Shown in pieces: positions 23,530-63,511 of a DNA stretch of 64,000 nucleotides. The position numbers and the translations under genes are program-made. The notes beneath the pieces are model-generated. The model worked only from the letters and a program-made list of their open reading frames with translations, was not told where the DNA came from and made no database searches. Source of the DNA: Psammoneis japonica (lineage: Eukaryota); assembly GCA_008632985.1 (NCBI GenBank), contig QPGO01000056.1, forward strand, positions 62,001-126,000, read 5' to 3'. Every line of letters starts with the position of its first letter. Positions within the stretch are counted from its first letter, which is position 1.

Positions 23530-24300
23530 CCCCATGCTTTCCCAAACAACACCTTTGCCAACTGATCAGCCAACTTTGTGCCCCCATCCTCTTTCCCAGC
23601 TCAAACAATCCATGCCACTGCTGTCTCTTGCACTGCATGACAGCCAACTGCACTGTGCTTCTTGAGCAAAACTGACTCTGGTGTTTGCTCACATTCTTGA
23701 TGACTCCATGGTTGTCACAGAACACACTCATTGTGCCACTGGCATGCCAAAACATGACAGCTTGTGCCATGAAGCCATGACCAGCTCCTCACAAACTTGC
23801 AATGCAATGAACTTGCTTCCAAGTGTCACCAACTCTGCTGCACTCTGTCTCTTGCTGAGCCAAATGATCAGATTGTTCCCAACAAATGGGATGACACCTG
23901 CGCATGTGAACAACAAGTTACAATGTTCCCAGCAGCAGCTTGTGACAGTGGGCACTTCTTCTCATTTGAATCACAAGCAATGTCCTTGATGGTGTGAAGC
24001 AACACAGCAAAATCACTGACCTTCTTGGCTGCAACATGTCCAATGCCATTCTCAGCTTAATTGTTGGCTTGCCATGTTGCCCCATGACAATTGCAAACAC
24101 CTTGGCCTTCTGATCTTTGCAATGCTCCTCCAAACTGCCTTGTCCTTTTCTGCATTGCTGCTCATTGGACAGTCAGGTTCTTCAGGTGTCAACTCCTCCA
24201 ACTGCAAGACTCGTTGTCTTTGTGTGCTGATCAGCTTGTTTTCCAATGTCTGTCATTCCATGCATGTGATCCTTGAGCTCAGACATGTTTGTCTTGTCTT
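23530..24300 (-). mobile_element. Ty1/Copia (diatom CoDi-like) remnant: RNase H plus a possible gag fragment
   Basis: GVIPFVGNNLIIWLSKRQSAAELVTLGSKFIAL, VFCDNHGVIKNVS and GKEDGGTKLADQLAKVL match the Copia RNase H C-terminus. KAKVFAIVMGQ upstream resembles gag. Confidence 0.82.
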
Positions 24301-24744
24301 CCCATGCTGTGGCCACAGCATAAAATGAGTGACCAGTCAGCTTTGATGGAGTCAAGGACATTGGAGATGCAGTGCTGGAAAGGCATCACTGTTCCATTTT
24401 AAATCATCAAAGTACAGAATGCATCAATCATCCCATCCTTGTTGTGGAAGAACATCCCAGAATCCATGAAACAATTGAAGACAAAGGTTGTTGCAACATG
24501 ACTGAACTGATAATTTTTCACCGTGCAATGCTTTTCGTGGCATAACACTTTCGCGAGCTAGAGGCTTACGGCATGCATGTCACTACAATTACAGCATGGA
24601 GCTTCCCCAAAATGCCTGGCACAACACTCTCATTATACTAGTTATTGGGCAATGGCCCATCACAATATTTTCTTTCTTTCCAAATAAGACGCTGGCTTCA
24701 TATTCATCTCAACAAAAACTGTGTGATCTCTCATACATGGCACT

Positions 24745-27531: not shown

Positions 27532-28508
27532 CCTACAGAAGAGAGCAAAGAAGTGTGAGAAACCAATCATACCATGAGCACGGCATAACCACAATGCAGT
27601 GCTGATCATTTTGCACTCAAGCTGTATCGCGGAGAAAGAAATGATTAACTAGGGCATACATGATAGCGCCTTCTGTGGAGGTGACCTTATTGATAGAGTC
27701 TTCAGACCCTTTCGACTTGTCCTTTCCACCACGTCGATTGGACAATTCTTTTTGCTCAACCAATCTCTGAGCTGTAAGTGAATTGGAGACAGCTGCGCAG
27801 TGCACCTCTGCCAGCATCGTCAAGCTTCCGTTACATTGGCCTGAAATATTTGTTTTCTTCCGTTGGGACCGAAATATTTGGTTTTCTGCCGTTGGGTGAG
27901 GTCGAAACATTGGGATTTCTTCCGTTGCTTCGAGCATCTGTGATAGGAATGGACTGCAGCACAATCACTGTCCATGGCTCAGTTTGAAGATCCAGCAGTG
28001 GGCCGCAGGAAGTTGCTTCTCAATGGTCAAAAGTCAGGCCCAAGATCAATGGATCAAGGACTTGGCCCTCTCTGCTACTCTCTAGCTCAAAGAGAAAGGT
28101 CATCCCCACGTTTATCATATAAAATTATAGTGGAATTTGAATAAGCATATTTATAAGAGAGTGTATTTTTGAAAACAAAAATTATTCTTTGTTGTCCACA
28201 CCGATCGCCGATCGCGCACGAAAACGATAACATCAAACACCTCGATCGAAGCACCACGATGACGACAATCGTCGACATTTCTCAAAAACGTAGCGTGTCG
28301 TGCGCAAAACTTTTCATGCATGTAAGATCTTTGACACATAAACAACATAAAATAAATGAGAGTTGGTGCACGGACTCCCATCTTTACAGACTTATGGCTT
28401 GCTGATTTACACCACGGTGAAGCACGGTGAAATTCAGAAAAAAATCATGCAAATCACGAGCTGTTCGGCTGAATTCGAGCCAAAAAAGCACAGCCTCACC
28501 ACACGTTT

Positions 28509-29530
28509 TGCGGCTGTCACAGCCTTTCTCGTTCGCTCTTCTTTGTTCTCGAAGTCGAGGACAGTTGGAACACAGTTGGTTGGACTGGAAGGCTTTGCTA
28601 GATTGGGATGTGCAAGCCTCAACCCCAATCCCAAGCTGGACGGCTGGGCCATCCAGTGCCACCCAACGTGCGAGCATGTTCAAAGGGCAAGCACATGATT
28701 GGGAGAGGAGTGCAGGCCTGGCTGGAAGGCTGTGGCGCTGCGGGGCAGGTGGCTCGGGGACGTTGTTGTTGGGGTGAAGAATGAAGTTGCCGCCTTCAAG
28801 CATTTCATGGGCAAAGTTGCGCGTGACAGGTTCGGCCTGGAGATGCAAGCAGCGGAGCATCTCATCGAAGCGCCATCGGCCTGAGAGGCGGATGATGTCG
28901 GTGTCAACACGTGTGCAAAGGAGTGCCATCGCACCGGTGGCCCAAAGGCAGTGGGCAGAGATGTCAGACGTGTTGAATCCCAAAGTGGCGGGGCCAATGG
29001 TGGTGACGGCGGTGCGCAGGATGCCGGCGATGTCAGTGGCGAGACGCGGTGCCAGGCGCCATTGTGAAAGCACACGCTGATGGGTGCATCAGAAAGGGCA
29101 CCGCAGGTGTGCAAATGCTGCACTCATCAAATTAAAGCACAAGCGGGGCAGAGGCGGGGGTGTCCCGATCGGCCAAGGCCAATGACTTCACCACGGACGG
29201 CATTCTTCTGGGTCGTGAACGTGAGTGTCACGAAGGTCGCAACATCAAGGTGTGCAGCGGGCCCGTTGCAGGCATCCAAACATTGTGTGCTGGAGGCGAG
29301 GCGCATGTCAGCGAGGCAAAAAGGTGCAGTGTCAGACGGAGTGGTCATGTGCTTGCCTGGGCACAACAAAAAAAAGAGCGCAGTGGCGCGGGTGCCTGGA
29401 TGAGGGCTTGTGGCAGCGGCAGTCATGATCCAGAGGAGGACAGCGATGGGGACAGGTTTTACTCTGTCAGGTGGTGGATCCTCTTTCTTGTAGAAACTGA
29501 CTTGTCCAGACGGCTGTTGTTGTCTTTGTC
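28509..29530 (-). mobile_element. Fragment of a related tyrosine-recombinase retrotransposon (YR domain plus B-type terminal repeat)
   Basis: KKEDPPPDRVKPVP, FFLLCPGKH, TGAMALLCTRVDTDIIRLSGRWRFDEMLRCLHLQAEP; homologous to 44268-45422. 28509-28650 is homologous to the B repeats at 45510 and 45865. Confidence 0.9.
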
Positions 29531-29699
29531 CTTGCTTCCGAAGAATGGCCAAAGTTGGAAGGTTGCCGTCTTCTCTTGCACAGATGATCGTTCAATTTTT
29601 TGAGCGGCAAGAGCAAGCGGTCAGCAACCATGAAATGGTCACGACAGTTGCCATTGGTTGTCTCACCTCGTTTGGCCACTCAAGGGGGGTCGGTGTCAA

Positions 29700-31420
29700 A
29701 AATTTCGACACCGGCACTCATGAGTCGAAAGAAGCGATCCAGATTTTCATGCGGGAAGAAGCACTCTCACACTCCCTCCAACACAAGATGCACTTGATGT
29801 TGTCATTGTTTGCATTCATCAGGCTTGTTCAACAAGTGCACTTCCATGCCAAATGACAACTGACAACAAGGAGAATTTTGAAGACAATTTTGGACATGGC
29901 AAGTCCTTTGCAAGGGCCATGTTGCTGTCACAAGGAAACATGTCACATGGTTGACACAATGACAGCAATGACTCTCATTGAAACATGCTGTGCCCTGGCA
30001 CTGCATTTTTCTTCTTTTGTTTCATTCCAGACCTCCAGAATGGCTTTGGCATTGATGGTGAAGTTGAGTGGGAGGAGAAGATCTGCAAAGCTGCCGGCAA
30101 GTTTGGTCGCCAAGCATTGTTGTTGTGCATTTGCTGCTTGTGCATGCATCTCACTCATGTTCATGCTTTTGTCTGTCATTGGCACAGCTTCAGGCATGGC
30201 AGCCCGTTTGGGAATCAGTTGACAATGGTGCTTTGTCAACCACCCCTTTCATCCCAAACGATTTGCAAGAGGACATTGCAGCACCAGCCGACACATCTCA
30301 CAGCACCCTTGTGACATCATCAAGCAGCAGCCATGCTGCACAGCTGGCTTCAGTGCCACCCCAGCCCACCCACCATTGCCATGACTGTGGTCAATCTTCG
30401 CATGTGCAATGCTGGGAATGCACAATTAACTGGTGGAAATTGGTGAACAAGGCAAGGACACAGATTTGAGCAACAAGCAGATCCGTTTCCACTTGTGCCA
30501 AGAAGCTGTCTTTCTCTTCCATGGAATTCTTGGGCACGGCAATTGCACGGAGCTGCCAGACTGCATCCACAGGGAGACACTTGATTTGCGCCCTCAGACC
30601 CGTGATGGACTGCACACCAGCTTCAAGAAAAGTGGCGACAATGCTTGGCACCTTTGTGGCTTTGGCTTGTGGTCAGCAACTTGCATTGAAGAGTTTCAGA
30701 GTTGTTTGTTTCTTTCCATTTCCAACTTTGCAAACAAGTTGTCAGCACATCAACAACGTGTTCACTGAACCTGTTGTTCAAACTTGGCATTGCACTGCAT
30801 CTGTCAGGTGACACACAAACCTGTTGCTGGTGGCACCAGAAATTGAAACTCCTGTGTCAAGAACTTGGTGTCACACTGCATCTGTTGGGTGATGGGCACA
30901 ATCCTGTTGTTTTCATTTTGTGCAACATGGTTTCCATGTAAACCAAAGAGGCCAACATTCATGCACTGTCCTTGTGCATGTCTTTCAGACAACCTCCAAA
31001 TGAATGATGAAGTTGTGCATGCTTTGCATCTGCCAGAACAAAGAACTCAACCCCAAACTTGGTGGGCTTGTCTTTGTTGTGTTGTCTGATGGGACAGATC
31101 TGCAGTGGACAACTTGTTCCACCTGCATCAAATGCACTGTGAGAAAGGGAACTGATGACAGTGGACCCAGCAATGGCACCAGCAGTCCTCAAAGCAGTTG
31201 CATTTTGAGTTTTTATGACAGCAGGGAGTGTTCTTGGAAAAGACACCCCCCAACTGGCCACATTTGTTTCCTTGCATGCCACATTCTTGGCACTGACTTG
31301 AGTGCATTTGTGCAATTTTGTTGCTTTCTGCAACTCCTCTTTTGTTTGGTTGTCATTTGGAAACATGTGGCTCAAAAATTTTCCTTCTGTGCACCTCCAG
31401 GCAACAGTGACAGATTGTCC
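29700..31420 (-). mobile_element. piggyBac-like transposase remnant
   Basis: CPIRQHNKDKPTKFGVEFFVLADAK (~31025-31100) matches the piggyBac RQY..DKP.KFG motif with Y>H. The rest is frameshifted and the boundaries are approximate. Confidence 0.65.
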
Positions 31421-32139
31421 CACTTGACTTGAAAATGATCGTCATTGGTCTTCTGTGGACACACCACCACAGTGCCTTCCATCATGACCTTGTCAAATGG
31501 CAACATGCCCGAGTGCAGCTCTTGGTGCTGAGCAGCCACAAACAGTTTCACACAACCCTGCAGTTCCTTTTTTGAGGGTCCATCTCTTTGCATGAGGTTG
31601 CAATGTCAAAACAAAACGACGTTGCCAAATTTTTGTCAGATGTGGATCCCCAACATCTTTGGATGTTCAGGACTGCACATCTCAGACACCAACAATCCAG
31701 GATGCACCCCTTTTGTCAAGAATGCATGACACACAGTCAGCAATTTGCTTCATTTAATCCAAGATTTGGCCCATTTAAAAATTCTGGATTCATCAAACTT
31801 CTGACCACAAGCAAGTCCATCCCTGCATTTGGCACATTTTGCACTGCATGCATGAGGGTGATGTTTTGTTTGTGTTCACATCAACTGCTGAATTGCATGT
31901 GCGCCCCGCATTCCTGGATCCAAAGCTTGGCATTTGTCCATCAAGTTGGACTTTGTTGTTTTCCAAAAATTTTTCCACCTGAATCCACCATCCATTGCTT
32001 TTTTGTAACACCTTTGGTTGCCTTTTCACCCTTGTTTTTAAGCCAGGTTTCCTCATTTTGCCGGCTGCTTCCTCCACATGGTGGAAAAGGTTTTTCATTT
32101 TCCGCGTTCTTCTCATTGTTGTTTTGCAACAATGAGATG

Positions 32140-34000
32140 GTGATGCCTCCCGTTGGCCTTGTGTGTCCTTGTTGCAATCATTCTGGATTTACTTCCAAGT
32201 GTGGACTCGCCATCATCTTGCCACCAATTGTTTCACTTTGGGTGTCCCAACCAAGTCTTTTAGTTGTCCATGTTGCGGACAACTTGGCTTTGACTCAGAA
32301 AGCCAGGTGCAGTGTCACCTCCAGCGCTTCTGCTTGTCTTGTGCTGAAACACCCTCCTGGGAATTTTGTCCATTGGTTTCTTTGCATGCTCATGATGCCA
32401 TCTCTGTTTCCTCTCTTGGGTTGACTCCAATGGACCGAAATGTCCTCATTGCAAAGTTCCCTTTTCCAATGCTGCCCAGCATCTCCAGAAGTGTGTGCCC
32501 TGTCATGAAAAGGAGCAGGCTTCTTCTCAATGTGTTGCTGCTGTTTCCAATTCCACCAACATGTTGTCCTCTCCAGATGACAACACATCAGGTGGTGAAC
32601 CAGATGACAGCCCAATGTTTGGTTTTGCTGGCAACAATCCAGCCCTGCCTCTCCTTCCTGAAGTTTGTTTGAATCCAGATCCACCCACTTGCTTGGGTCG
32701 TTCATCCACCGCCATCAAAGTGGCTGCTGCCAATGCTTGCCAATGTGTTTTGTTTTCCAATGATGGTGTTTCCACTCTTGACAAGGAAAGCCCGGGCCTG
32801 TTCCAGCTCCAGGTGAGCGCTCAAAGGGCAATCGTGCACAAAACATTTTTTGTGTGCATGTGATTGCCTTTCGATTTTCAAAATGATCAAATTTGAAGGA
32901 GTTCAATGTGCTAAATTGCGCCAAAAATTGGCCTTTCGCGTGATGGATTGAGCATCACCTGGAGCTGGAACAGGCCCCCGCTGATGTCCCTGAGTTCCTT
33001 GCTGCAGATTTTCTCTTGGGTGCTGTGTGTTCTCCTTTGATGTCACGTTGGGCAGATGTCTCACCCTCTCCTCCTGTTGCTGACAACTTGGCAGGAGATC
33101 CCTCTTTTGATCACAAGAATCCACTTGGACCCACCCATGAGCTTTCACCGGATGAGGACTTTGACGCACCTCCGGCCATGCACTCACCCAGCATTGTGCC
33201 CATGACGCGGCTGCTGCATCTTTGTTGTTCCTCTGGTGTTGCAATTGACTTCATGGACAAAGTCACAAGAATGACTTGCGAGGAGCACTCTGAAAAACGC
33301 CTTGATTTGACCAAGCCTCCAGTTGCAACTGCAGCTGCAATGAAGCAACTTCTGGAGCTGTTCCCAAATGTCCCTCTTCTGCGGACTGCCACTGTGATGT
33401 TGGAGTGCAACAATCCATTGCAGCAACAAAAGCACATGCCCAAGCACAGTCGATCACCACCCTTCCCAGTTTGTAATTTCTCTGAGACTCTGCAAGATCT
33501 TTTCACAGAGCCTGTGTTCCACAACCTTTCAAAGTTGCAGGCAAATCCAAACAAATTTGGTTGCCCCATGTGCCTCCTCCTGAGGACACAGCTGTCAAAT
33601 CTGAAAACTCCATGGAATCTGGTGAGACATTTGCTTCCCTGATTTTTCCAGAGACTGGCAATTGTTCCGTCCAAGTCAAGACATGGGAGACAGAGAGTGG
33701 TTCCAATGCTGCTCCAACACATTGGCTGCCACTTCTGATTTTCACATTTGCCATTTTTCAATTGTTCCATCAAGACTGGTGTCAATGCAGTCAATCCACA
33801 TGGGATGGAGCCACTCATGCACTTGCTTGTGCCAATGATTTGAGAGAATGTTTGCCATGATTGTTGTTGCTGGCATCCTCTTGGGTTCATCCCCAACATG
33901 AACAAGCAAGACAAGAAGGATGAGACTGGGTGTCTTGCTGTGGCAAAGTGCCATCACATCCTGAAGGCAGTGCTTTGTGGACTTCTTCATTGTCAGGCCA
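32140..34000 (+). mobile_element. Plavaka-like transposase remnant with N-terminal zinc fingers, interrupted by a MITE
   Basis: CPCC..(HH)..C fingers at 32160-32335. Then FPVCNFSETLQDLF...NLSKLQANP, KTGVNAVNPHGMEPLM, WHPLGFIPN and CHHILKAVL, following the Plavaka DKT...EP...W.LG.IP...YH..L layout. Confidence 0.6.
32795..32976. mobile_element. 182-bp MITE with perfect 22-bp TIRs and a 4-bp TSD
   Basis: ggcctgttccagctccaggtga (32795-32816) / tcacctggagctggaacaggcc (32955-32976). cccg flanks both sides (32791-32794, 32977-32980). The same TIR occurs alone at 17558-17579. Confidence 0.88.
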
Positions 34001-37000
34001 TCAGGCTAATCCACCCACCACACATGCAACAAATCGGAAATGAGCACCAGCACATTGCAGTTGTTAAAAAGAATCTTGGTGTTTCTCCCACAGCACAAAC
34101 CACAAACCTTGTGATCTGCGTCAAGGAAAGACCTGTGAATCAAAGCAGGAGCCCAACTCATGACAAGAAGAATGGTGAAGCTCAATGCTCCATGTGTGAG
34201 AGGAAGGAGCAAGCAAATGACAAGCAACAGAAAAACCAGCACAAGCACCACCAGCATTGATGAACCTGAAAATGCTGTTGCAGCAAGCTGCAAAGAAGGA
34301 GGGGTGTGTGACAACCTCAGTGAAGAAGTCAAAGTTCAAATTGCTTCCGTGAGAAGCAGGACCATCTCCAACAACACAACCAAATTCATGATCAATGTCA
34401 GGCATGTGTTGGCAGCAAGGTTCACGTGCATTGAGGCAATTGCGGCAGCTCACAACAACCATGTCCATGAAAAACAAGAACAACGGTGGGAGAAATGTGA
34501 GGGAATGGAGAATGTGGGAATTTGTGAAGAGGGAAATTGGATCTGTGTGGAGATCTCTGTCAAGTGACAAAAGGATTGTGCTCAACGGCAAGTGTGCATC
34601 AGCAAACAACCAGAAACTTTCAACACAAGCAAACAATGTAAAAATTGGCAAACTTTTAGACCCATTTTGAATTGATGGACCTTTTTTGGCAAACATCTGA
34701 TGGACCATCATGACAGTGCTAACTCTTCAGACCGCAGAAGCCACAAAACACCAAAATCAGCCGCAATGATGATGACACCCCGGCTCACACTGCTGACCTT
34801 GCCATGTCCTTTTTTTGTGATTTGCACACTGTTGAGGAAGCATCTAAGTTCCTTGATGTCTCTGCAGCTGCCTTGTGCGTTGTTGAGCTGCTTGATGGGG
34901 AAAGATGCTCCACCTCTGGATGTGACTGCCCTGCCATGCACCGCAACAGATCAAGAGGACCTGGCTCCAGCCACTTTTGCATTCTCCACCATCAAGGCTG
35001 GTTCCCAAAAGCCGATCAAGGAAGCAATTGTTGAGGGTGGGGTCTCTGTGGGTCTCAACATCTCCGTGATGAAGAACTTGGTCGCAAACAGAGTTGATGT
35101 TGTTGCAACAACAGCTGCTTGAAGATTGGCTGCTCTGCAACAAACACATGGATGCCCCAAAACAAGGAAATTTGGACCAAGATCACAAATGCCATGGGCA
35201 GCAACCTCTCAGATGCAGTCAAGGACAAGCTTCGAAATGAGCCTCGTGTGGGACTGTGGCTGGCCCCTTGGCATTTTAAACCAGAAGAAAGGATGTGCAA
35301 CCCCAATGCAAAAGAGTGGATGATGAACAAGGTTGATGCCAAGAAGAAGCATTGTGATGTTGACCACTTTGTGTGGACCGGCTTTCCACCACCAAACCAC
35401 CTGCCTTCAAACTTCATTGCACATGAACTGTCTGATCCTTCTTGGGAACAACCAAGCAACCATTGGAAAAGGAGGCATGTGGCACCAGCACAAGGTTCAG
35501 GATTGCCGTCGGGGGTTGCGGCGCACCATTCTGTTGAACCACTGAGTGAGTGTGATCCCCAAACTCCCCTTGCGCATGTGACATTGGCAAAAACTCAAGT
35601 TGCTCTGAAGAAAATGTGTGAGATGGCTGCATTGAAAACAGAAGAGTCAAAAAAGAAGGACGACATTGTTGCAAATCTTTGCAGTGCCCTTGCACTCGCA
35701 AACCATTGCAAGAAGGTCTCAGAGAACAATGCAAAGCAACTTCAGACCCAACTGGCTGGAGTCCTGCAAATTGGAGCTCAACAAGTGAGGATTGTCCTTT
35801 GACCTGTGATGATCTTGCACCAGGTGGCAGACTGTCAAAGGCTGTGCGGACGCACATGCATTTTCCAAACTGTGAGGCACATGAGGCCTTCCTGTGAGCA
35901 TTGAATTGGGATGATGACACAGAGGGAGTTGGTTGCAACCCCAGTGACGGATTGTGTGTTGGATTTTGTCATTGCAGCAGGGTTTCCACCGAAGAATGAC
36001 TCAGAGAAGTCAACGTGAGTGACCAGGAGTTTCCAACAAAACCTGAAGCAAGAGCAATCAATTGGAAGACCAAATGCTTGATCTGTTGCATGCATGTGAA
36101 ACTTGGAATCTCGCATGAAGCAATTGTGCCTTTGTTTGCTGTCTCGTCCAGTGTCACAAGTGACGTGGTGCACACATGGGCTGTCTTCTTGAATTGTTCT
36201 CTTTCACTGTGGTTTCCCACCCCAACCCAATCACAAATGCTGTGGGCTTTCCCTGATTGATTTGCATGGGCTCATGATGGACATGCCCTTGTCTTCTTGC
36301 TTCTCGATGCAACAGAGCATTGGACACAGATGACAACCTCGAGTGATGCTCACTTGAGCATGCACAGTGACCACAAAGGTCACAACACAACAAAAAATGC
36401 TTGCGGGCACAGATCCCATTGGCTGTTCTCACAATGGATCCATCACGGAAGATGGGCACCCTGGATTGATTTCAGATCCTGTTGCAACAAAGATGAGCAA
36501 GCTTTTGGACAATGTGCCCTTTGGTCACATGACTCTGGATGATGACAAAGGATTCACGATCGACAATTTTGCAGCACGGATTGGCGTCAGGACCCAACGA
36601 CCTCCAAAAAAGACAAAGCTCCAGGTGAAGCAATCAGAAGCGGACACGGCTGCCATGCAAAAAGTCGGGAATCTGTGAATCTTTAACAAGATGGTGAATG
36701 GAGTGGCAAAGATGTCAATGCATTGCTTTGATTTGCTGGTGCCAATCCTGCAGCTTGGTCTTGCGCCTCTGATGTTCTGAGTGGCACACCTGATGCAAAA
36801 CTTTCATCCTGCATTAACCCATGGGCAGACGTCATCATGCGTTGACGAAAATGGCAAGGTTCAGTCAAGAAATTGACCATGCCATGGCGCGATCCAATGG
36901 TGTGGTGCAACAGATGAAGGCCTGTCTTGCTGCAGAGGTCATGTTCATCTTTGGGGTGACATGAAAGAAGTTGAATGATTCACTTGCCTGAGAAAGGGGC

Positions 37001-37599
37001 ACCCAGATGAGAGTCTTGTCAAAACAGGCAAGATGGTGCTGCAAGAGAAATGTGATGAAAAGCTGTGAGCAGGGCACACAAAGCATGTGGTTGGCAACCC
37101 ATGAATGACAACAACAAACAACCTCACTGATGCCATCGGTGCAACAATGAATGTCAATGTTGTCATTGCAACAACAAATGTTGATGCTGTCATTGCAACA
37201 CCAAATGAAAATGCCACTGTTGCAATGCATGAGGCCAACAATGTTGTTGCAACAACCAGCGCTGACACGTCACCACTCCAAGACTCTTGCAGCATTCTGA
37301 ACAGATCTTTGATTGCGGCATGATCACTGTGAAAGCAAGCTTCATCAAGCATTTTCTTGCATTTCACTGTGGTTCCATGGATTTCAAAGTTAGCTCCAAC
37401 ACCCTTTCTGACATTTTGAAAGGTGCCCAAATCACGCTTCTTTGAAAGCTTCTTCTCCCCTTCTTCTGTGGTCCTGGGCACTCTGGCAATCTGCATCTGT
37501 GAAACGTGACTTGCTGCTCTTCTTTGCGGTTGGCTTGAAGATGGTTGAAGCCACGCACAAAAGCCAATTGTTGACAGCTTCTCCACAAGGTGGTCTTTG

Positions 37600-39360
37600 C
37601 ACCAATGAAAGCACTGTGGCCCCATGGTCCAAGCTTTGTGACTGCAGCAGCCCAGCCCCGCGGTGCATGGACCCATGCAGAGTGATGCAATGATGCCCGT
37701 GCTTCAACCAAGGTTGTGTTTGTCCTTGTCAAACAAAGTCTCCTCCACTCGCAGCACAAGCAATGTCAGATGCAGCCGTCAACGAGCTTGTTTGCCTGGA
37801 TCTGTGTTTCGTTTTGTGCTGGAATTGGTTGTCATGGATGCGGGTTATTTTGCCAGGATGTGCAGCAGCTTTCTGTCCTCCAAGAAACAGATGGCATGAC
37901 AGCACAGCTGTTTCTCCTCATGCACATGATGCTGCAATGACCCCCCAACACTTTTCTGACCAATGTTTCCGCCAATGTGAGCAAAGCATTGATGTGTTGT
38001 AGACTCGGGTGGTTCAGGTTTTTCGGTGCAATTGTTGTCAAAGTCATCACTGAACTTTCTTCCAGCAAACAAGTTGTGGCAGTCCTTGAGGTGCTTCTCA
38101 ATGTGGCAGCTCCGTGGATCCAAAATGAACGGGTTGATCAATTGGTTGTTCAAGATTCAGAGAATGGATTCTTTGCCATTGTTGCATTTTGTCTCAATTT
38201 GTTTGAATGATCCACTGGTCTTCTTGCCTCAATTGCATGCATGACACAGCTGGGGAATGGAAGAGAAAAGGTTTTGGAAGCCTCGTGGTGACCGCCTCAT
38301 TTCATCACGTGACATGGCGGATCCCATGTCATTTGCTGCATTTCCACCATGTGCACTCAAGCAGTCTTTTAATTCAGCAACAGCACATTCTTCCACTTCC
38401 TTGTTCTTTGGCAGCAAGAAGCTGGCTGTGCTGTTAATCTCCTCTTTCAAATGATGCAGCAGCTGCGATGCACCTGTCAACTCCAGTGGTTCTTTTTCCT
38501 TCTTGGAAAATTCCTTGCATGTTCGTGGATTGATCAATCCACCCAAATGCTGCCTTGTCCTTTCAGTCAACCACTCTGTCATTTTGCCAGACTGCACAGC
38601 ATTGCTGTTGCTGTCGCAACAGCAACACTCTTCACAACATGTCACAATGTCACAAATGTACGTTTCGCACTGTTCCACAGCATGCAAGTCCTTGTGAACA
38701 TTTTTGTGTTGAGTTTTGAGCTAAGATGGAAAGCAAAGCTAGACACCAGCAATTCAACTGTCAAACCTGGACAACTCAACATTGAAGGGAGTGTGCATCA
38801 GCCACCGATTTCTTCCCAGCACCGTGTGCTTCACTTTTGTCTGGCGTGTGATCACATCCGAAACAAGCTCCACAAATCTGGAGCACAACATGGCAGATGG
38901 ATTGTTTGCTTTGAGCTCTGGACTGTCTGGAGTTGATGTGAGATCAAAGCATTGAAACTCCTCTCTCAAACAGCTGTCAACTGCCACGACACACTGGTGC
39001 CCAAGTGCAAGGAGATCGCTGTCACCCATGACTGCAGCATGCGGACGGCTGCTGTCATCATTGTTGATCCCAGACAGGCGGCATTGGTGATCTGCCTCTC
39101 CACATGCAACAATGGAATCAATGCCAAGGTTGTCGCACACCTTCTTTGTCATCACTGTGAACAATGGATCCATTCAACTGCTTGATTGTTTGCCTGGTTC
39201 AGCAGCTTCTCGGCGGGGCATTGCGATGCTCATGTTCATGGCTCATGGCGTTTGTTGGCCAAGTCTTGACCATCAAAGACCACAAACATGTTCCACTGAC
39301 ACATGCATTGGAAGTGACAAATCTTGCGAGCAAAACATCTTGAGGTGCAAGACATGATGC
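37600..39360 (-). pseudogene. Degenerate XPG/FEN1/EXO1-type 5' nuclease domain with a downstream SWIM-like finger
   Basis: LGIDSIVACGEADHQC...AAVMGDSDLLALG (ORF 38754-39173) matches the XPG I-region EAD/DSD motifs. CTAGLGCCSH at ~37640-37670. Confidence 0.65.
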
Positions 39361-39886
39361 AGCTTCAGAGAAGGCCTGACACATCAAACAACACACTGTT
39401 TTTCCCAAAATTCAGATGGCAAAACGTTTTTGGCCTGTTCTGGGGCAAAGGCACTGGTGGCAGAAGTCCATGGATTCCCATGGGGCTGCTCAGAGATGAT
39501 GCTTGGCACAATTGCTTTGGCGAGTGCACCTCGACGTTGTGCCGAAAATCCAGAAAAAAGTCAGTGCTGTCACAAACAGTGATTTTCGTCTGCACGTCTT
39601 CCGCCAAAAAAGGTCTGTTAAAAACACCCACCTCGTGTCGTTCGACGAGGCGAAATGACCCAATTCCGACCGTTGGGTCATTTGTGGCCGTTTAAATGTT
39701 TGAACATGCTTGCACGAGCATGAGAGCAATGGTCGTTTCTCTTGGTTCACTCCCATCGACTCATTCTTCCGAAGAGCAACCAAGAGCAACAGCCGGTCTA
39801 GACAGTTTTTAACACCATCACTGCGGCAGAGGATGCCTTCCGCCGTCGCTCACGTTTTGTTTGCAGGAGAAGCTTTGTCGCTGCAC

Positions 39887-42110
39887 GATGAACAATCAGC
39901 AGCCACCAGCACCACAGGCGCAAGTGCCCCAGAACCCAAATCAGCAGAATGCGCAACAGCCTGCTGCCACTCAAAATCAACCAGCACCACCACCGCCACA
40001 GGTGCAAGTGCCACAAGCCGCTGCAGTGCAGCCACCACAAGGACAAGCACCGCAAGCCGCACCACAAGTGCAAGCCCCTGGAGTCCCTGCAGTGCCGCGA
40101 GTGGCACCAGTCATCCAGAGCTGCCGTGATTGTCACCTCACGGCGACCAACGACCCACACGCTGGAGAGCATGCCGAAGCCATGTTGGATTTTGCCGCTC
40201 CACTGCAAGGGCAATCGCGACACAACCCGGCAAATCTCCACGCCCGAGTGGCCGCCGCCTCAAGCCACAATCAACCCATGGCCATTGCCACACACTGCCG
40301 TGCGGCGGGTGCAGCAGATGAAGGGCACATCCAAATTGTGCGCCGACTGTCAACCCATCCGACCACGGTGGTCGGTACACCCGAACCGTGGGACGACCAA
40401 ACTTTTGCCATTTTTGGCGATCTCATGCTTGGTCAGTTTACATTGGTCGAGTCAGGCGACGACGCCTTTAATTTGGTGCCGCAAGGAACATGGGTTCTGA
40501 ATCATGCGGCGCTTCAAGGGCACATCGCCACAACACCCGAGGGCCTGCACCCACATGTGCTCGCCCAAGCAGCGGAGTCTGAAGAAGTGCGCACTCGAAA
40601 CGCCATGTTTGTGCCATTTGAGTTCGTAAATCTCCTCATGGCGCAACCCTTGTGCCCAAAGGACGCTCATCGCCGCATTCACGGCGCCACACAGACAGCT
40701 GACAAAGTGGCTGCAATTGCGCCACTGCCAGACTTCCTTCGAGTGGCGTGTTGCGCCACTCTCAACGCGCCGATGCAATCCGCCGTTGCCGTCACTTGGC
40801 CGAGCATGACTCGGCCGCCCAACGAAGCGCCAGTGCGCCATTTTGATCCCAAGGTCAAGCGCGACATTCCAGGTCGCACGGGACGAGCCCAGGTGCAGGC
40901 ACCACAGTTCCAACCTGCAATTGCCACAACAGAGGGGCTCACCACCGAGCAGCGCCGTGCACGCACCGATGCCAAGGATCGTCAACGAGCTGCGGTGCGA
41001 GGCAAGATGCCGAACGAGTTCTTCGGCGATCACGGTGTCACCAAGCTGTTGCGCTGGTGTCAGATCTACAACGAGGCCGCACTGCCACCTTCATGGGCGG
41101 CACTCGCCGCAGCACCCAAGACGGGGCGCCTCGCCGTCATCCAAAACGCCATTGACGAGCAACGCCAGGCGCTGGGCGTGCATTTTGACGTGCCCGTCAC
41201 GGTGAGTTCATCACCAAGCTGGTCCAATTGGATTTTGCCGGCTACAACCAAGAAGAGCCGACTCAGGCATTGCGCCATTCTTGTTTGGACTCACAATGCC
41301 CGAAGCCGCCGAACAGATTTCCTGCCAGAGCGCTGTGTGTGAGCATGTTCACAGCGGTGCCGGCGCCCCTTTGCTTCCAGACGTCCAGCTGTTGGAAGCA
41401 CCGGACAAAGTGCTGGCAGCCACCACCATGCAAGCCGCCCAGCAGTCATGCGATGGGCATCGCCTCCTCCCATCCGCTGCACCAGGGGACAACCACCCAG
41501 TGGTGCACTGGCTCAGCCGACAGCGTCACAACATGGACCGACATGCCGATGAACTTGCAGTGCAGCATGCACTCCATGCCACCCTCCCAGCTGATTTCCA
41601 GTGCTGCGCTCAAGTCGAGATCCGGCACTGGTTTCGCACACAATCCAATGCTCTGCAAGAAGTGCCGTTCACCCCCTTGGAAATCGTGCACCAGGCGGCC
41701 AAAGGCACGTTGTGCTGGTGCTTCCACCTCCCGGCCACTGTGCAAGCTGCCGTGCCACTTGCTGCTGCCATGCCAGACCCACGTGGCCCCACGCAACCAG
41801 CGCCAGCACCACGAGACACCTCTAACTCGCCGGGCAGCAATGGCATCGTGCGCAATCCATCGCACGACCAGCGCTTCAGCAAATTGCGCGATTGTCCCAA
41901 CGTGCGCTCTCGTGATGTCAAGATGCGCTGTGCACGGGAAAAGATCGACCCGCCTGCCGATGACCAAGGCCGCACGCGTTGCTGTCCCTGCCACTGCAAG
42001 GGCCAGTGCAACACCAATTGTGGCTCTAGTCATGATCATCGCAATGACCATTCTGACGATGAGCAAGCTCGCCTCCTCAAATGGGGAGAGGAGCACTGGA
42101 AGACCGAACA
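39887..42110 (+). pseudogene. ORF1 (gag-like) of the YR retrotransposon, frameshifted near 41.2-41.3 kb
   Basis: P/Q-rich N-terminus (ORF 39861-41342). It continues in ORF 41281 up to a Cys/His finger, RCCPCHCKGQCNTNCGSSHDH. Confidence 0.7.
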
Positions 42111-44330
42111 GGTCTTCGGCAATGGAGCAAGTTCGGGGACTTGCCTCCAAGAGCCACCCTTCGCACCGGCCAAGAGGCCGATGCATCCACAACCCCCGAC
42201 TGTGGAGAGTTCAAAGCGTCAGCGCACCCGCCCCGCCACACGCGGACAGGATGTTGCTGTCGCCACCCACAATGACAAACTGGGTGAGCACATTAAAAAT
42301 GACACGTCTTTAATGCGTCGTCGAGGTCTCAGTTACTTGTTGCACCAACGTAGCGGCAGAGGCGACTGGGGAAACCTGCACCGGGTCCAACAACACCCGG
42401 CACACCGGTTGCTTTGGAACTGCAAGTGCCGAGGAGCACCAATCACCGTCGCCGACAAGCCTTGGACACAAGCTGAGCTAGACACTAGCATCGCCAGGGG
42501 CCCCCACAAGTCCGCCCATGAACACATCGAGTTTTTGCGAGAAGACATGGCCGACATGGTCGAAAAGGGCTTTTGGGTCGTGCCACCCTACTCCGAGGTT
42601 CGCAACACACCAGGATTGCGCCTCAGCCCCATCGGCGTCGTACCACAACATGGCCGACGTCCTCGCCCTGTCGTAGACTACACCCACTGCGGGCACAACA
42701 CTTCCACGCAACCCAATGCACCCATGGAAGCCATGCAATTTGGTTGCACGCTAGACCGTTTGCTTCGCCGTGTCCTTCTCGCCAACCCTGCCAAAGGCAA
42801 AGTCCACCTCATGAAAGTCGACCTTGCCGATGGCTGTTGCCGCATGCAACTGGTTCCAGAGCGTGCGCCCCTCCTAGGAGTGGTGTTCCCCAGTGCTCCG
42901 GGGGAGCCACCACTTGTTGCCATCCCAACTAGATTGCCCATGGGCTGGGCCAATTCACCGCCGCTGTTCTGCGCCGCCACAGAAACTGTTGCCGATCCAG
43001 CCAATCTGGATCTTGTGCACAACGTCCAAGCTCCACCTCATCCGCTGGAGCATCTGCTGGACAGCCGCCCCGAACCACACCAACCCACGCCTGTTCATGA
43101 CCCAGCCCACGCCGTGCCTGCCCCTGCTCGCCCGGATCCCCATCTCCGTCCGGACCGACGCCGTCGCCTGCAGCACATCGACATCTGTGTTGATGACTTT
43201 ATGGGCGCCGCCCAAGGCTCGCACTCAGCATGCCGCAACGTCCACAGGGTTCTACTCCACATCCTGGACGACACATTCCGGCCACTCGATTCACACGACC
43301 GTCCCACCTGCAAGGAGCCTGTCTCCGTCAAAAAGCTCCGCAAGGGTGACGCGACTTGGTCGACACAGAAAGAAGTTTTAGGATGGATCATTGACACTCT
43401 GTCAATGACCCTGCACCTCACCCCACGCCGACGCGCCCGACTTCGCCAAACGCTGCACCAGGACTTTCCCCGCACACGCAAACGTGCCGACACCACCGAT
43501 TGTCACAAGTTGCTCGGCGAACTCCGTTCCCTCGCACTGGCCATCCCAGGCTCTCGAGGGCTGTTCTCCGAGCTCCAACACAATCTCCGCAACACCAATC
43601 CGGACTCCCGAATCCGGATCAGCAACCATTGGCACTGCGCCCCAGACGATTTTCGTGCCCTCGAACCAACGTTGGAACACCGACCCGTTCGCATCCAGGA
43701 ACTGGTGCCTCTCCCACCAACCATCACCGGCTGCCACGACGCAGCAGGTCATGGAGCTGGCGGCATCACACTCCCCACTGACACTGCCACACCTCGCGCC
43801 GCGACTCTACACTTCAGCAACGGACGCAAATGTCAACAATGCGACGCAGGCCCCATTGTTTGGCGCCAACCTTTCCCGAAAACTGTCGCTGCACTCTTGT
43901 CCACCTGCCGCAATCCCCGTGGCCCCATCACCAACACTGACTTGGAACCAGCTGGGGGCGCAATCCAGTCACACGCAGCCGCCGATTGCTTTGACATGCT
44001 CGAGCGCACACATTTGTCTCGCACCAACAACTCGGGAACCATGTGCTGGGAATGCAAAGGCTCGACGATGACCATCAAGCCAGCTGCCAAGCTCCTTTGT
44101 TTTCAAGGCCATCACCAATGATGCCACCGCCATGTCAGCCTCTATGACTGCTGGCCGGGTTTCCTCAACACAGCCGCCAACGATGCATCTCGTCTCCAGT
44201 CCCTTGCCAACCATGAATTTTTGCGCCATTTTAATCTCTGTCATCCGCAGAAACTCTCCTGGCACCTTTGGACGCCGCCACCCGAGCTGATTTCCTTTGT
44301 GATCTCGACGCTGCTCAACACGCCGTGGCC
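42111..44330 (+). pseudogene. Reverse transcriptase / RNase H of the YR retrotransposon
   Basis: LSPIGVVPQ..RRPRPVVDY, KVDLADGCCR, LPMGWANSPP, HIDICVDDF (YVDD>CVDD), LGWIID, HDAAGHGAGG, ITNTDLE. The in-frame TGA at 44119 is followed by an NTAANDASRL RNase H tail. Confidence 0.92.
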
Positions 44331-45422
44331 CACGGTGTCACCTCTAGCCGAGCCTCCGCCGCCAATGCCCACTGGGACAAATGGCGTGAGTTCTGCACCA
44401 CTGTGGCCCTCGACCCATTGCTCCAAGATGTCGACGACCCTGTTGTCTTCCTGCAAGTCTTCCCACACCGCTGCAGAACTGGAGTCATCGCCCCACAAGG
44501 CAATCCCATCTGCGGCCGCACCGCTGAGGATGCCGTGTGGTCGGTTGGCCAAACGTTCGCTGCGATGGGGGCCCCAGACCCACGCCACACATCCCAAGGC
44601 AACATGGATTTCAGACTTGCCCGCCAAGTCCGTTTCCACAAGAAACAGGATCCTCCCCCGGGCCAAGTCAAACCCGTCCCGGTGGCTGTGCTCATGTGGA
44701 TTGTGCACGCAGCAGCCAACAGCAATGATCCGGGCACCCAAGCTGTCGCCGACATGATCGCCACAGCTTTTTTCTTTTTATTGCGTCCCGGCGAACATGC
44801 CACGATGCCGTCGGATGCTGCCCCGTTCCGACTGGCAGACGCACGCTTGGCAGCCGGAGGCGTCTACCTTGACACCTTCCAAGCTACGCATGCCCAACTC
44901 GACGCTTCCACCTTCGCCACCCTCACGTTCACTGCTCAAAATAACGGAGCACCAGGCAAAGTTCTCGGCTCAGGCTTGTCTGGTCACCCAAACTTGTGCC
45001 CTGCCCAAGCCTCAATCCGTCACGTCAAACACTTGCGCACCCATGGCGCGCTGCCTGACACTCCCCTTGGCATCCATTTCCACAACAACGCCTGGTGGCG
45101 CATGTCGCCGGCCGATGTCACCAGCGTTCTGCACAACGCTGTCATTGCTCTCGGTCTGGCAACCCTTGGTTTCACCACAAGGGACATTGCCGCTCGGTGT
45201 CTTCGCACCTCTGGCGCCATGGCACTGCTTTGCGCCCAAGTTGACACCAATCTCATTCGGCTCTTGGGCCGCTGGCGGTCTGACGAGATGCTGCGACACC
45301 TGCACCTGCAGGCCGAACCCATCATGCGCAACTTCGCCCGCGACATGCTCGCAGGTGGCGATTTCGTCCTCCACCCCAATGCTGAAGTGCCTGTGAACCC
45401 GCAAGATCCCGTCCAAGACTGA
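44268..45422 (+). pseudogene. Tyrosine recombinase of the YR retrotransposon; catalytic Tyr replaced by His
   Basis: FFFLLRPGEH (box I), ARCLRTSGAMAL, LGRWRSDEMLRHLH. The codon at the catalytic Tyr position (45297-45299) is CAC. Confidence 0.92.
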
Positions 45423-46799
45423 TGTCGCCACCAGCCCTCCAGCCTCCGCCCACCCACCCACCCAATGGTGCACACCTCTACAGTGCCATGCACTGTGGTG
45501 GTGCTGGAAGGCCCTGCCATTCCAGCTGGGGTTTGGGAGTGAGGCTTGTGCATCTGCTGGCAAAGCCACCCCAGTCCTGTTTCGCCAAGTTTTAGAAGCT
45601 CTAGCTTCAGCTAGAGAGCCACAGGAGAAGGAACGAGAAAGGCGGCATGAGCCGCCTGCCTCGNTGTCGTTCGATGAGGCGAAATGACCCAATTCCGACT
45701 GTTGGGTCATTTGCAGCCGTTTAAATGTTTGAACGTGCTTGCACGAGCATGAGAGCAACGGTCGTTTCTCTTGGTTCGCTCCCATCGACTCATTCTTCCG
45801 AAGAGCAACCAAGAGCAACAGCCGGTCTAGACAGTTTTTAACACTCCCACCTCTCCCGCCCTCTGGCCCTTCCGTTCCAGCTGGGGTTTGGGAATGAGGC
45901 TTGTGCATCTGCCAGCAAAGCCATTCCAGTCCTGTTTTGCCAAGTTTTAGAAGCTCCAGCTTTGGCTAGAGAGCCACAGGAGAAGGAACGAGAAAGGCGG
46001 CATGAGCCGCAAAGACGCATGCGTGCATTGCTCAAATGGGTGCACAATTTAAAACAGTGGAAAATTGGAAAAAATGCAAACGTTGAGTTGCACGTGGGCC
46101 TCACCACAATGACGGTGTGTGGGTCGACATGAATTGCAGCAATCTGGGAGAGGTGGACAATGGCCAAATGGGAAGATCACTTGCAAAAATGGATTCATCA
46201 CACAACTTGTTCCCTGCCACAAACCGGCTGGGACAACACACAAAATTTGAGAAAAGCGGCAGTGACACCCTGTCAAATGGGAAGGCAATGGACAAACCGA
46301 TTGCAGAGGGAGTGAGGACTCAAGATGTTGGGAGTGCAGAGTCAAGCAGCAAGTTGGGTTGACAACAGTGGGAGGATGAAGACAAGGACTGTCACCAACC
46401 AGCAGCAAATGGGCTGTGGTGTGGTTCTGTGCAGTTGCCACCAGCCCAGCTCCTGTGGGGTTGTTGAACTTGCAAAGAAACAAGCATGGGGAGTTGAATT
46501 GTTTCCAGCTGTTGAGAGGTGGCGGGAGTTCAACAGCGACACACCAACAGAGGGACATCATGTCATGGATTGGGCTCCAGCAGTGGGTGAAAAATTGATG
46601 GGGTCCATGTTGACAGAGGTGGTCAATGAAAGTGTGTGGCCATGTCAAAAGTTCATCATCTTCAACAGGGAGTTGGTGGCAGGAGGAGAGTGCATGAAAA
46701 TGGTTCTCCAGGAATTGAGGAGCATGGCATTGATGCTGGAGACAAAAAGCCAAACAGGAAAAGAAACAATGCACAAGACAATGTGAGAAAGAGGGTGAC

Positions 46800-47516
46800 A
46801 GATGTGAAAGTGTGACAATTGTGTGTGACTGTTGAGGACAAGAGAGACTGAATGTTGTCTCTGCATTCCTTGCTTTCTCCAATGCAGTTTTTGCTTTGGA
46901 AGGGAACCTGGTGGAGTTTGAAGATTTGCACAAAGGCAGGGATGACAAGGACATGCGCACATGGTTCTTGGAGATGACAGTGCCTGCGGTGATGGGCCAA
47001 GCACAGTTTGGAAGGAGCACATCAGATCTGCTCAAAGAGTGGCTGACAACATCTTCTGAGGCCTTTGCTCTGCTGCTGCACACAAACTTCTGTGACAAGG
47101 TCATTGACACAGCAGGGATGTTGGAGAAGAAGGACAACAGAACAAGGAGCAGAAAGCTGATGATGATGGGTGCAAAGAATGCCAAGTGCATGGCAAAGGC
47201 TTGGGAGGAATTGGCAAAGAGGAGCCAAGGTTGGAGCAAGGCGGGCATCGTGAAGCACAATGAGCTGTGTGCGTGGGTGGTGCAAGACTGGGAGAAGAAT
47301 GATGGATTTGGTGTGTGGTTCAAGGAACAGAGATGCACAAAGGCTGAATTGTCAAAGGAGGTGGAGAAGAAACACAAGAGGGAAGAGAGCAAAAAGAAGA
47401 AGAAGGAGGAAGGGTGGGATGCCCCAATGGGAGAGGCACTGCCATTGCAGTGGGTGGCTGCCAACGATGGCACAAATGAAGCAGCAGCAATGGCGACCCA
47501 CCAAACTGCTGTGTGA
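46800..47516 (+). pseudogene. Degenerate TE-associated ORF (SEAFALLL...GWS..G..NEL motif family)
   Basis: ORF 46896-47516: LTTSSEAFALLLHTNF ... GWSKAGIVKHNELCAWVVQD. Confidence 0.5.
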
Positions 47517-54160: not shown

Positions 54161-54289
54161 CAAACAAATTGCGCGGATCAAAAGTTCAGAATCAGAGCCA
54201 AAATCGACACAGGCATGTGGTGGGCTGTCTCTGAATCTTCATGACTAAAATTGGCCCCAAAAAAAGGCGCGAAATTTTGAAATGAGAAA

Positions 54290-63390: not shown

Positions 63391-63511
63391 GAAAATGTGT
63401 TGTGTTATTTGCTCTCATGAAATGCGACGAGTTACTCCGGGTGGAGCGAAGCGCAGGATTGTGAGTTGGTAGTTTATTAAAGTTCAGTTATGTCGAAAGC
63501 TTCCAAGTAGT

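Follow-up and report, generated by a model that had tools for sequence, protein, structure and literature searches.

Introduction

Why should the catalytic tyrosine of a tyrosine recombinase (YR) be missing from two copies of the gene that lie in one stretch of DNA, and be replaced by a different residue in each of them? The question is raised by positions 62,001 to 126,000 of contig QPGO01000056.1 (assembly GCA_008632985.1, Psammoneis japonica), a stretch of 64,000 nucleotides that is referred to here, at its full length, as the window. It holds two copies of a Ngaro-type retroelement, one of them full-length (copy 1) and the other reduced to a relic of the recombinase (copy 2); their coordinates, and those of the other features, are collected in Table 1. 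At the position expected for the nucleophile, an earlier note on this DNA had read His for copy 1 and Cys for copy 2, and had derived both from a TAC codon that was hit once on the T and once on the A, by a process directed at TpA and distinct from the decay of CpG. Here we argue that the nucleophile codons of two independently decayed Ngaro-type copies were probably lost in a regional, nearly saturating and context-specific A:T>G:C hypermutation of TpA in a diatom-like nuclear genome. In the mechanism that we propose, TpA would become CpA on one strand and, on its complement, TpG. The codons of Tyr (TAY) contain this target, and transitions within it would give CAY (His) or TGY (Cys) only; consequently, Tyr would be wiped out wholesale, the catalytic Tyr included.

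The nucleophile codon and its ancestor

Both codons read exactly as reported in the earlier note. In copy 1, CAC (His) stands at 45297-45299 on the plus strand, within the peptide GRWRSDEMLR-H-LHLQAEP and the codon series GGC CGC TGG CGG TCT GAC GAG ATG CTG CGA CAC CTG CAC, while in copy 2 TGC (Cys) stands at 28851-28849 on the minus strand, within GRWRFDEMLR-C-LHLQAEP and the series ggc cga tgg cgc ttc gat gag atg ctc cgc tgc ttg cat. Both altered residues lie 8 positions past the Trp of the GRW motif. A homologue search with the recombinase gave 807 matches; the 120 that are listed are all environmental proteins, and 119 of them could be aligned at this column. Tyr is found there in 118 of the 119, and the only protein with another residue, P0002 (Cys), is itself depleted in Tyr. 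At the DNA level, Tyr is encoded in 78 of 79 homologous metagenome loci, and the remaining locus (L078) stops short of the site. The earlier note had suggested tabulating the codon at the catalytic site; in these loci it is TAC 61 times, TAT 18 times (one locus, L066, being counted twice) and CGC never, and neither Arg nor His occurs there among the 119 aligned proteins and the 78 loci. The ancestral codon was therefore TAC or TAT, so that CAC represents a T>C change and TGC an A>G change, both within TpA. A missense transition in TAC can lead to His or to Cys and to nothing else, and the loss of the codon “in two different ways” is thus the expected outcome.

It is hardly credible that the codon descends from CGC (Arg) and reached CAC and TGC through CpG decay. 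Although each of the two codons is one CpG-type transition away from CGC, and CpG decay has been active in both copies, the codon table contradicts such an origin: Arg is absent from all 79 codon readings (78 loci) and from all 119 proteins. More changes would also be required, starting from an ancestor that could not function, and the same His or Cys outcome is seen at 14 further Tyr columns of copy 1.

The assignment of this position to the nucleophile is based on conservation, on the order and spacing of the catalytic residues and on a predicted fold. Within the family, R184, K236, R321-x-x-R324, W347 and Y355 vary little or not at all, and Cre of phage P1 has R173, K201, H289-x-x-R292, W315 and Y324 in the same order. 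The Arg-to-Trp spacing is 23 in the family and in Cre, and the Trp-to-Tyr spacing is 8 in the family versus 9 in Cre; in order and spacing, the family thus has the catalytic set R...K...H/R-x-x-R...H/W...Y, with the Tyr 8-9 residues after the H/W. The structure predicted by AlphaFold2 has a two-domain, Cre-like fold (predicted local distance difference test score, pLDDT, 88.4; predicted template modelling score, pTM, 0.82), with pLDDT below 50 at residues 342-356. The top matches of this model in Foldseek are Cre (E 9e-7), and VIA-align placed residues 1-349 of the model on residues 19-321 of Cre (Z 17.6, root-mean-square deviation 3.7, 276 aligned residues). Methods that compare sequences only were less informative: PF00589 was not matched by the recombinase at E up to 0.1, which reflects a limit of sensitivity, the PDB sequences gave no match either to the protein in phmmer or to a 60-sequence profile, and hhalign of the family profile against Cre returned a probability of 0.4 and no usable alignment. 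As these methods failed, the mapping of the catalytic residues rests on order, spacing and fold, and Y355 corresponds to the Cre nucleophile by its place in the order and not by superposition of residues. On these grounds, the position singled out in the earlier note is the predicted nucleophile, and the Tyr that an active recombinase requires is missing from both copies.

Loss of tyrosine across the elements

The nucleophile is one of many Tyr codons affected. Tyr makes up 0.2-0.34% of the copy 1 proteins, compared with family medians of 1.9-2.0%, and their His and Cys contents are raised. Tyr-majority columns are defined here as those with Tyr in at least 40% of the homologues; copy 1 covers 17 of them, 5 in the recombinase and 12 in pol. 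All 5 of the former and 10 of the latter now read His (9) or Cys (6), 15 in total, and TAC persists at the remaining two. In copy 2, 3 of the 4 such columns read His or Cys. The three TAC codons kept in the two copies are all preceded by C. At columns conserved in at least 80% of homologues, a change was seen at 7 of the 8 that have Tyr and at 52 of the 404 with any other residue (Fisher p 6e-6). Both strands have been hit: the sense strand shows 9 changes to His next to 6 to Cys, and this excludes the editing of sense RNA alone. Changes at other codons also fit the loss of TpA: there are three Leu>Pro changes in pol, all as CCA, and the recombinase has two Val>Ala changes as GCA, a Leu>Ser as TCA, and Thr>Ala and Ile>Val changes after T. 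The reverse transcriptase (RT) motif CVDD (43186) was considered as a lost YVDD and dropped, because its column is not among the Tyr-majority columns.

Among the matches listed, the closest relative of the copy 1 recombinase is P0002, an environmental protein of 391 aa with 68% identity. Its Tyr content is 0.51%, and it has His or Cys at 4 of the 5 Tyr columns of the recombinase, including Cys at the nucleophile. These five columns read HCHYC in P0002 and CHHHH in copy 1, whereas none of the other 118 homologues has more than one His or Cys among them. That copy 1 and copy 2, and likewise copy 1 and P0002, ended up with different residues at shared columns shows independent hits in separate lineages. 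Over the recombinase, copies 1 and 2 are 64% identical in DNA and 56-61% in protein, and from the DNA value they belong to different lineages of one superfamily and are not two recent copies. The “two copies” of the earlier note are therefore not copies of one family.

Ordinary neutral decay, in which random transitions and CpG deamination happened to fall on the Tyr codon of both copies, has to be weighed against these numbers. Both copies are clearly decayed: the copy 1 recombinase departs from the family at 23 of 157 columns conserved in at least 80% of homologues and at 11 of 117 conserved in at least 90%, and copy 2 at 19 of 93 of the latter kind. Additionally, at the conserved columns of the copy 1 recombinase the numbers of CpG-type and TpA-type changes are similar (about 8 of the 23 in either class, sorted manually), and His and Cys would be the sole missense products of any transition in TAC. 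Nevertheless, neutral decay cannot account for the loss of 15 of 17 Tyr columns when about 13% of other conserved columns are changed, it cannot yield an observed/expected ratio (o/e) of 0.02-0.10 for TpA over 52 kb with TpG and CpA at 1.5-2.0, and it leaves unexplained the bias of the surviving TpA towards YTAR, both of which are described below. We consider it very unlikely.

It had further been proposed that TpA targeting kills elements through active sites that depend on Tyr. This is borne out only in part: the nucleophile is lost in both copies, but both also carry other inactivating changes. The pol of copy 1 has an in-frame TGA at 44119-44121, a CpG-type nonsense change at a position where 117 of 117 homologues have Arg, and this copy is thus dead independently of its Tyr losses; its recombinase also carries K236N (44940-44942). 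In copy 2, besides the 5′ truncation, there is a frameshift near 29037-29061 together with two Arg>TGA changes at 29124-29129, and three catalytic residues are altered, as R184C (29361-29363), R321H (28951-28953) and R324W (28942-28944). CpG-type changes lie behind these three substitutions and both TGA codons.

A regional purge of TpA with sharp borders

The window contains 676 TpA (o/e 0.16), of which 223 lie in 52 kb of purged DNA and 453 in 12 kb of gene islands. In most 1-kb bins of 1-24000 and 29001-57000 the TpA o/e is 0.02-0.10 (1-7 per kb), the highest values of the purged tracts being 0.19 at 7001-8000 and 0.10-0.33 within copy 1. The o/e of TpG and CpA in the purged tracts is mostly about 1.4-2.1 (about 1.4-2.4 in tract 1), and that of CpG mostly 0.1-0.7. 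The borders are sharp, at about 24320-24400, at 28408, where the copy 2 relic ends, and at 56961-57006. The non-coding DNA beside the genes retains dense TpA; consequently, the purge is not general to non-coding DNA. About 350 bp from the border of a purged tract, a TA-rich run at 57300-57430 has a TpA every 4-8 bases, an instance of how abrupt the border is.

Elsewhere, the element family has a median TpA o/e of 0.64 (minimum 0.38) and a median GC content of 53%. Copy 1 has a GC content of 60%, against 47% in the window, and combines a TpA o/e of 0.14 with a CpG o/e of 0.85, so that the purge of TpA is separable from, and faster than, the decay of CpG. The separation of the two processes that the earlier note had drawn is borne out by this difference, by the 15 Tyr-majority columns that became His or Cys and by the near absence of TpA over about 52 kb.

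The purge also affects stop codons. On both strands of 1-24300, 29600-39600 and 46100-56960 there are 201 TAA, 69 TAG and 2309 TGA; TGA makes up about 90% of the stop triplets in the purged tracts, and long open reading frames (ORFs) are plentiful there in all frames. This abundance follows from the purge of TAA and TAG, and since none of 29 such frames of 200 aa or more matches Pfam, open frames in these tracts are no evidence of genes.

A process acting on the elements before their integration has also been considered. RNA or cDNA of the elements could have been edited in the manner of ADAR, ADAT or APOBEC enzymes, and the tracts would then be stacks of purged insertions. Such editing would fit the fact that both recognised examples are retroelements, the youth of copy 1, which is already poor in TpA yet has terminal repeats of 96% and 92% identity and a CpG o/e of 0.85, and the single TA-vs-CA difference between A1/A2 and B1/B2. 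The strands, however, were hit about equally (9 His, 6 Cys), TAG, the triplet preferred by ADAR, is less depleted than TAY, and the purge extends over more than 40 kb outside both copies, in DNA where no element was recognised and up to sharp borders with the gene islands. Furthermore, in the chlorarachniophyte Bigelowiella natans, comparable mutations are described as arising de novo in integrated single-copy DNA (10.64898/2026.01.13.699255). Editing before integration therefore appears quite improbable, and the regional hypermutation of TpA that we favour would instead act on integrated DNA in situ.

Sequence context of the surviving TpA

In the purged tracts outside both copies, 105 of 176 surviving TpA (60%) stand in YTAR, 64 in mixed contexts and 7 (4%) in RTAY. 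The corresponding values in 374 kb of family loci, used as reference, are 20%, 53% and 27% (chi-square p 2e-39). The survivors of copy 1 show a similar distribution, with 13 YTAR (39%), 18 mixed and 2 RTAY (6%; p 0.003). Relative to the gene islands, the density ratio is 0.6 for TTAA, 0.32 for CTAG, 0.03 for GTAC, 0.015 for ATAC/GTAT and 0 for ATAT. TAY is depleted beyond TAR, with ratios of 0.23 for TAA, 0.09 for TAG, 0.05 for TAC and 0.03 for TAT, and among the products, TGC and TGT show a stronger excess than TGA and TGG. Since the survivors are mostly YTAR and RTAY is nearly gone, the preferred target is TAY/RTA. Expressed per strand, the rule is roughly T>C at 5′-R-T-A, which equals A>G at T-A-Y on the opposite strand. 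The nucleophile codon is preceded by A, a purine that leaves the T>C route open, in copy 1 (CGA before CAC) and by C, a pyrimidine that goes with the A>G route, in copy 2 (CGC before TGC), and 5 of the 6 Tyr>Cys changes in copy 1 follow a pyrimidine.

The chemistry behind this preference may be the deamination of adenine in 5′-TA(Y), perhaps by a TadA/ADAT-like enzyme. In E. coli, TadA is described as editing TACG in mRNAs, with Tyr TAC changed to Cys TGC at 12 of 12 sites within known genes (PMC5630033). This activity resembles what is seen in the window in that an adenine would be deaminated with T/U before it and C after it. It differs in being RNA editing of a four-base motif in a hairpin, whereas the window records a heritable change of DNA, in which TAT and TAC are depleted alike and the triplet does not have to be followed by G.

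The same regional process could in principle proceed through thymine, if an enzyme oxidised T at TpA to a base of the hydroxymethyl- or formyl-uracil type that pairs with G and thus produced T>C. Oxidised thymines mispair with G, the signature is strand-symmetric, and T>C at R-T-A is the same event as A>G at T-A-Y when judged by sequence. We nonetheless regard this route as unlikely. The data examined here gave no evidence of such bases or enzymes in the host; the U/T-A-C preference of the TadA family recodes Tyr TAC to Cys TGC (PMC5630033), and an ADAT2-like candidate is described in the B. natans preprint (10.64898/2026.01.13.699255).

Sequencing support and timing relative to insertion

Contigs from sequencing run X1, with a word depth of about 50-70, match the region at 99.4-100% identity. 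A contig of 934 bases spans 28566-29499 with 4 differences, three of which are known and lie away from the codon, and a contig of 988 bases spans 44539-45526 with 1 difference. The list of differences between X1 and the window covers 40 of 149, and one difference in each codon-spanning contig falls outside it. Both nucleophile codons are probably confirmed by these contigs.

A sequencing or assembly artefact, such as the systematic miscalling of a modified base at TpA, would leave a motif-specific signature like that of basecalling errors at modified motifs, and no library type is recorded for run X1. Against such an artefact, the X1 contigs reproduce the region, the neighbouring genes and their non-coding flanks retain normal TpA, and the environmental protein P0002 shows the same pattern of Tyr>His/Cys changes. 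Additionally, the mutations in B. natans were seen in Illumina reads, according to the preprint (10.64898/2026.01.13.699255). We see very little chance that an artefact explains the signature.

The 40 listed differences between X1 and the window include three TG-vs-CA double differences (28914-28915, 37903-37904 and 37921-37922), one position where the window has TG and the X1 contig TA (37804, in a CTAT context) and 23 clean CG vs TG/CA differences, a number obtained after three pairs were regrouped from 26. They could be allelic or paralogous variants.

Comparisons between repeats bear on the timing of the process. Between the terminal repeats of copy 1 there are 7 CG vs TG/CA sites, three TG-vs-CA doubles and one TA-vs-CA difference. 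The purged tracts also contain internal duplicates, namely 1987-5887 versus 5876-10202 (96-97% identity) and 1-2424 versus 49941-52356 in reverse orientation (78%); these are possibly parts of another repeat family, and their differences are dominated by CG vs TG/CA, with numerous TG-vs-CA doubles besides. In the first of them, of 3.9 kb, 60 CG vs TG/CA, 12 TA vs TG/CA and 10 TG-vs-CA double differences were counted, together with 7 shared TpA; by a rough and simple model, about 4 doubles would be expected from double hits at CpG. The TG-vs-CA doubles, between duplicates and between X1 and the window, are the only hints of new mutation in resident DNA. The TA vs TG/CA differences of this duplicate were rejected as proof of ongoing activity, as ordinary C>T changes at CpA and TpG, both of which abound, could give a similar number.

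Copy 1 as a Ngaro-type element

Ngaro elements are defined by A-pol-B-A-B terminal repeats, a gag-pol-YR order and the lack of a methyltransferase domain, whereas the DIRS1 group is described as having inverted repeats and a Dam-like domain (PMC3783388). Like the Ngaro group, copy 1 has direct split repeats in the order A-ORFs-B-A-B and encodes gag, pol and YR in this order without a methyltransferase domain of the DIRS type; its recombinase ORF begins within the end of pol, which leaves no space for a further domain. In the precomputed Pfam annotation of the 120 listed pol homologues, PF00078 is present on some and PF05869 (Dam) on none. Membership of DIRS1, a group marked by inverted terminal repeats and an internal complementary region, was ruled out, as the repeats are direct and split and no inverted pair bounds the element. 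Copy 1 differs from the Ngaro group in that its proteins match no Pfam model and the relatives found are metagenome proteins. The Pfam search on its gag, pol and recombinase and on the pieces of copy 2 gave no match, and for the recombinase there was none at E up to 0.1. A lone N occupies position 45664, exactly between repeats B1 and A2.

Comparison with known systems

A process of this general kind is the repeat-induced point mutation (RIP) of fungi, which degrades transposons by changing CpA to TpA and creates stop codons. The window resembles it in showing regional, dinucleotide-specific transitions that degrade transposons and spare the neighbouring genes, but the direction is opposite: TpA, TAA and TAG are destroyed, and the elements keep long frames and die by missense changes. 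Fungal RIP was therefore ruled out, TpA being depleted and CpA enriched.

Deaminases are also known to produce clustered transitions in retroelements, and ADAR and APOBEC3 are comparable to this extent. APOBEC enzymes cause C>T and G>A changes, and ADAR is an animal enzyme that acts on double-stranded RNA and prefers G after its target. The transitions in the window are of another type than those of APOBEC, and TAG is spared relative to TAY, unlike what would be expected of ADAR. A U before the edited A is also favoured by ADAR, as cited in the B. natans preprint (10.64898/2026.01.13.699255).

The closest parallel is found in B. natans. According to the preprint, 231 of 302 nuclear mutations in mutation-accumulation lines fell in two integrated viral regions; all but one of the mutations in these regions were A>G or T>C, those were all on TpA, and their rate was about 1000 times the background (10.64898/2026.01.13.699255). 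They were obtained with Illumina reads and arose de novo in integrated, single-copy DNA. In the genome of B. natans, 124 clusters (each of at least 3 1-kb windows) poor in TpA and rich in CpA and TpG are described, reverse-transcriptase and DDE domains are overrepresented among coding sequences poor in TpA, and an ADAT2-like DNA adenine deaminase is proposed, for which a candidate was found (10.64898/2026.01.13.699255). The main text of the preprint treats neither third-base context nor tyrosine, recombinases or retrotransposons.

As far as the preprint describes them, the two cases have in common the transitions from TpA to TpG or CpA; in B. natans these are confined to bounded tracts of foreign DNA. 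In the window, the TA>CA/TG polarity is evident from the Tyr columns, the ancestral codons and the excess of TpG and CpA, and the tracts have sharp borders and spare the genes, the mobile DNA recognised in them being the two Ngaro copies. The differences concern the host (a chlorarachniophyte of the Rhizaria versus a diatom-like organism), the degree of depletion (Rho(TpA) of 0.45 in the region of nucleocytoplasmic large DNA virus origin of B. natans versus 0.02-0.10 over 24 and 28 kb here) and the kind of evidence, since de novo mutation was demonstrated in B. natans and the window is known from its sequence signature.

The literature on TpA depletion or hypermutation, in diatoms or elsewhere, yielded nothing beyond this preprint, in a search whose coverage of subscription journals was thin. 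By the preprint's account, a TpA signature has already been described once, in another supergroup, and the window is not categorically new. What is new here is the diatom-like host, the near-saturation over tens of kb with sharp borders, the Ngaro victims, the TAY/RTA bias and the erasure of Tyr and of TAA and TAG stops.

Several observations weigh against the regional hypermutation of TpA as we have described it. In the purged tracts, the 29 ORFs that reach 200 aa all lacked a Pfam match, just 17-42% of each tract has a repeat within the window, and the mobile DNA that could be recognised consists of the two Ngaro copies. The lethal changes other than Tyr losses that both copies carry are mostly due to CpG decay, and the differences between repeats and between duplicates are mostly CG vs TG/CA, which makes the evidence for activity after insertion modest. 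The TAY rule is a bias, for among the nine Tyr>His changes of copy 1 four follow a purine and five a pyrimidine. With one difference per contig unplaced, the nucleophile codons lack letter-by-letter confirmation by X1, and this run may be the assembly's own data and thus not independent. Finally, the assignment to a diatom-like host rests on the 49-56% identity of one transporter exon.

Other features of the window

The transporter is encoded by a multi-exon gene of ABCG/PDR type with short introns at 58051-63390 (+). The closest named relatives of one exon are from the diatoms Grammatophora (56%), Nitzschia and Odontella (52%) and Mayamaea (49%), with oomycetes next (about 31-40%); the Protein Atlas gave the transporter family of an exon but no useful taxon. 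In the other gene island, which adjoins copy 2 and is normal in TpA, an intronless ORF of 967 aa (24745-27648, minus strand) has a Ser/Lys-rich N-terminal part and a weak match to CarboxypepD_reg (E 1e-5), below the Pfam cut-off. At 28400-28500 the word depth of run X1 rises to about 1,800-14,000, compared with about 50 nearby, and this peak points to a short repeat of very high copy number where the gene island meets the copy 2 relic.

Table 1. Coordinates of the features described in the text (positions of the window).
Feature	Position	Strand	Basis
TpA-purged tract 1; 1-14 TpA per kb, o/e 0.02-0.10 in 23 of 24 1-kb bins	1..24320		Dinucleotide counts
Gene island; TpA o/e 0.37-0.59	24321..28408		Dinucleotide counts, ORFs
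TpA-purged tract 2; contains both recombinase copies	28410..56960		Dinucleotide counts
B-type terminal repeat remnant downstream of copy 2; 74-78% identical to B1/B2	28507..28671	-	Repeat search, alignment
Copy 2, 5′-truncated recombinase relic; family residues 121-389	28747..29534	-	ORFs, homologue alignment
Nucleophile codon of copy 2, TGC (Cys)	28849..28851	-	Reading of sequence, homologue alignment
Copy 1, full-length Ngaro-type element, A1-gag-pol-YR-B1-A2-B2	39636..46010	+	Repeats, ORFs, composition, homologues
Terminal repeat A1; 96% identical to A2	39636..39815	+	Repeat search
gag-like ORF; 509 aa, 0.2% Tyr, no Pfam match	39813..41342	+	ORF, Pfam
pol (RT/RNase H) region	42187..44757	+	Alignment to homologues
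Tyrosine-recombinase ORF of copy 1; 395 aa, open	44235..45422	+	ORF, homologues
Nucleophile codon of copy 1, CAC (His)	45297..45299	+	Reading of sequence, homologue alignment, locus codons
Terminal repeat B1; 92% identical to B2	45510..45655	+	Repeat search
Terminal repeat A2	45665..45844	+	Repeat search
Terminal repeat B2	45865..46010	+	Repeat search
Gene island; TpA o/e 0.5-0.97, ABCG-type transporter gene	56961..64000		Dinucleotide counts, homologues

Implications

The window may be seen as the long-term end state of the process, that is, a near-total loss of TpA in bounded tracts. In such genomes, the annotation of purged tracts would yield many long spurious ORFs, purged transposons would escape Pfam models, and an “intact ORF” would be no evidence of an active element. 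The protein signature is predictable: Tyr gives way to His or Cys, Leu encoded by CTA to Pro and Val encoded by GTA to Ala, and TAA and TAG stops are lost. Moreover, as the loss of TpA and the decay of CpG both end in TG/CA, catalytic and other conserved Tyr codons offer a means of telling them apart. The TAY/RTA preference for the third base, in turn, narrows the search for the enzyme.

By analogy with B. natans, the process may be aimed at transposons or other foreign DNA as a defence. A wider and more tentative proposal, which we hold to be possible but doubtful, is that diatoms, and perhaps many marine protists, possess a RIP-like defence of opposite chemistry, in which a DNA adenine deaminase of the TadA/ADAT family, guided by heterochromatin or small RNAs, would convert 5′-TA(Y) to TG(Y) on both strands of transposon and viral DNA until TpA is nearly extinct, erasing tyrosine and the TAA and TAG stops. 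Proteins would then be inactivated through the loss of tyrosine and of all active sites that depend on it, and dead elements would resemble intact ORFs. If the process is real in a diatom, TpA hypermutation would be no peculiarity of one chlorarachniophyte, and the defence would either be shared across distant algal lineages or have evolved twice.

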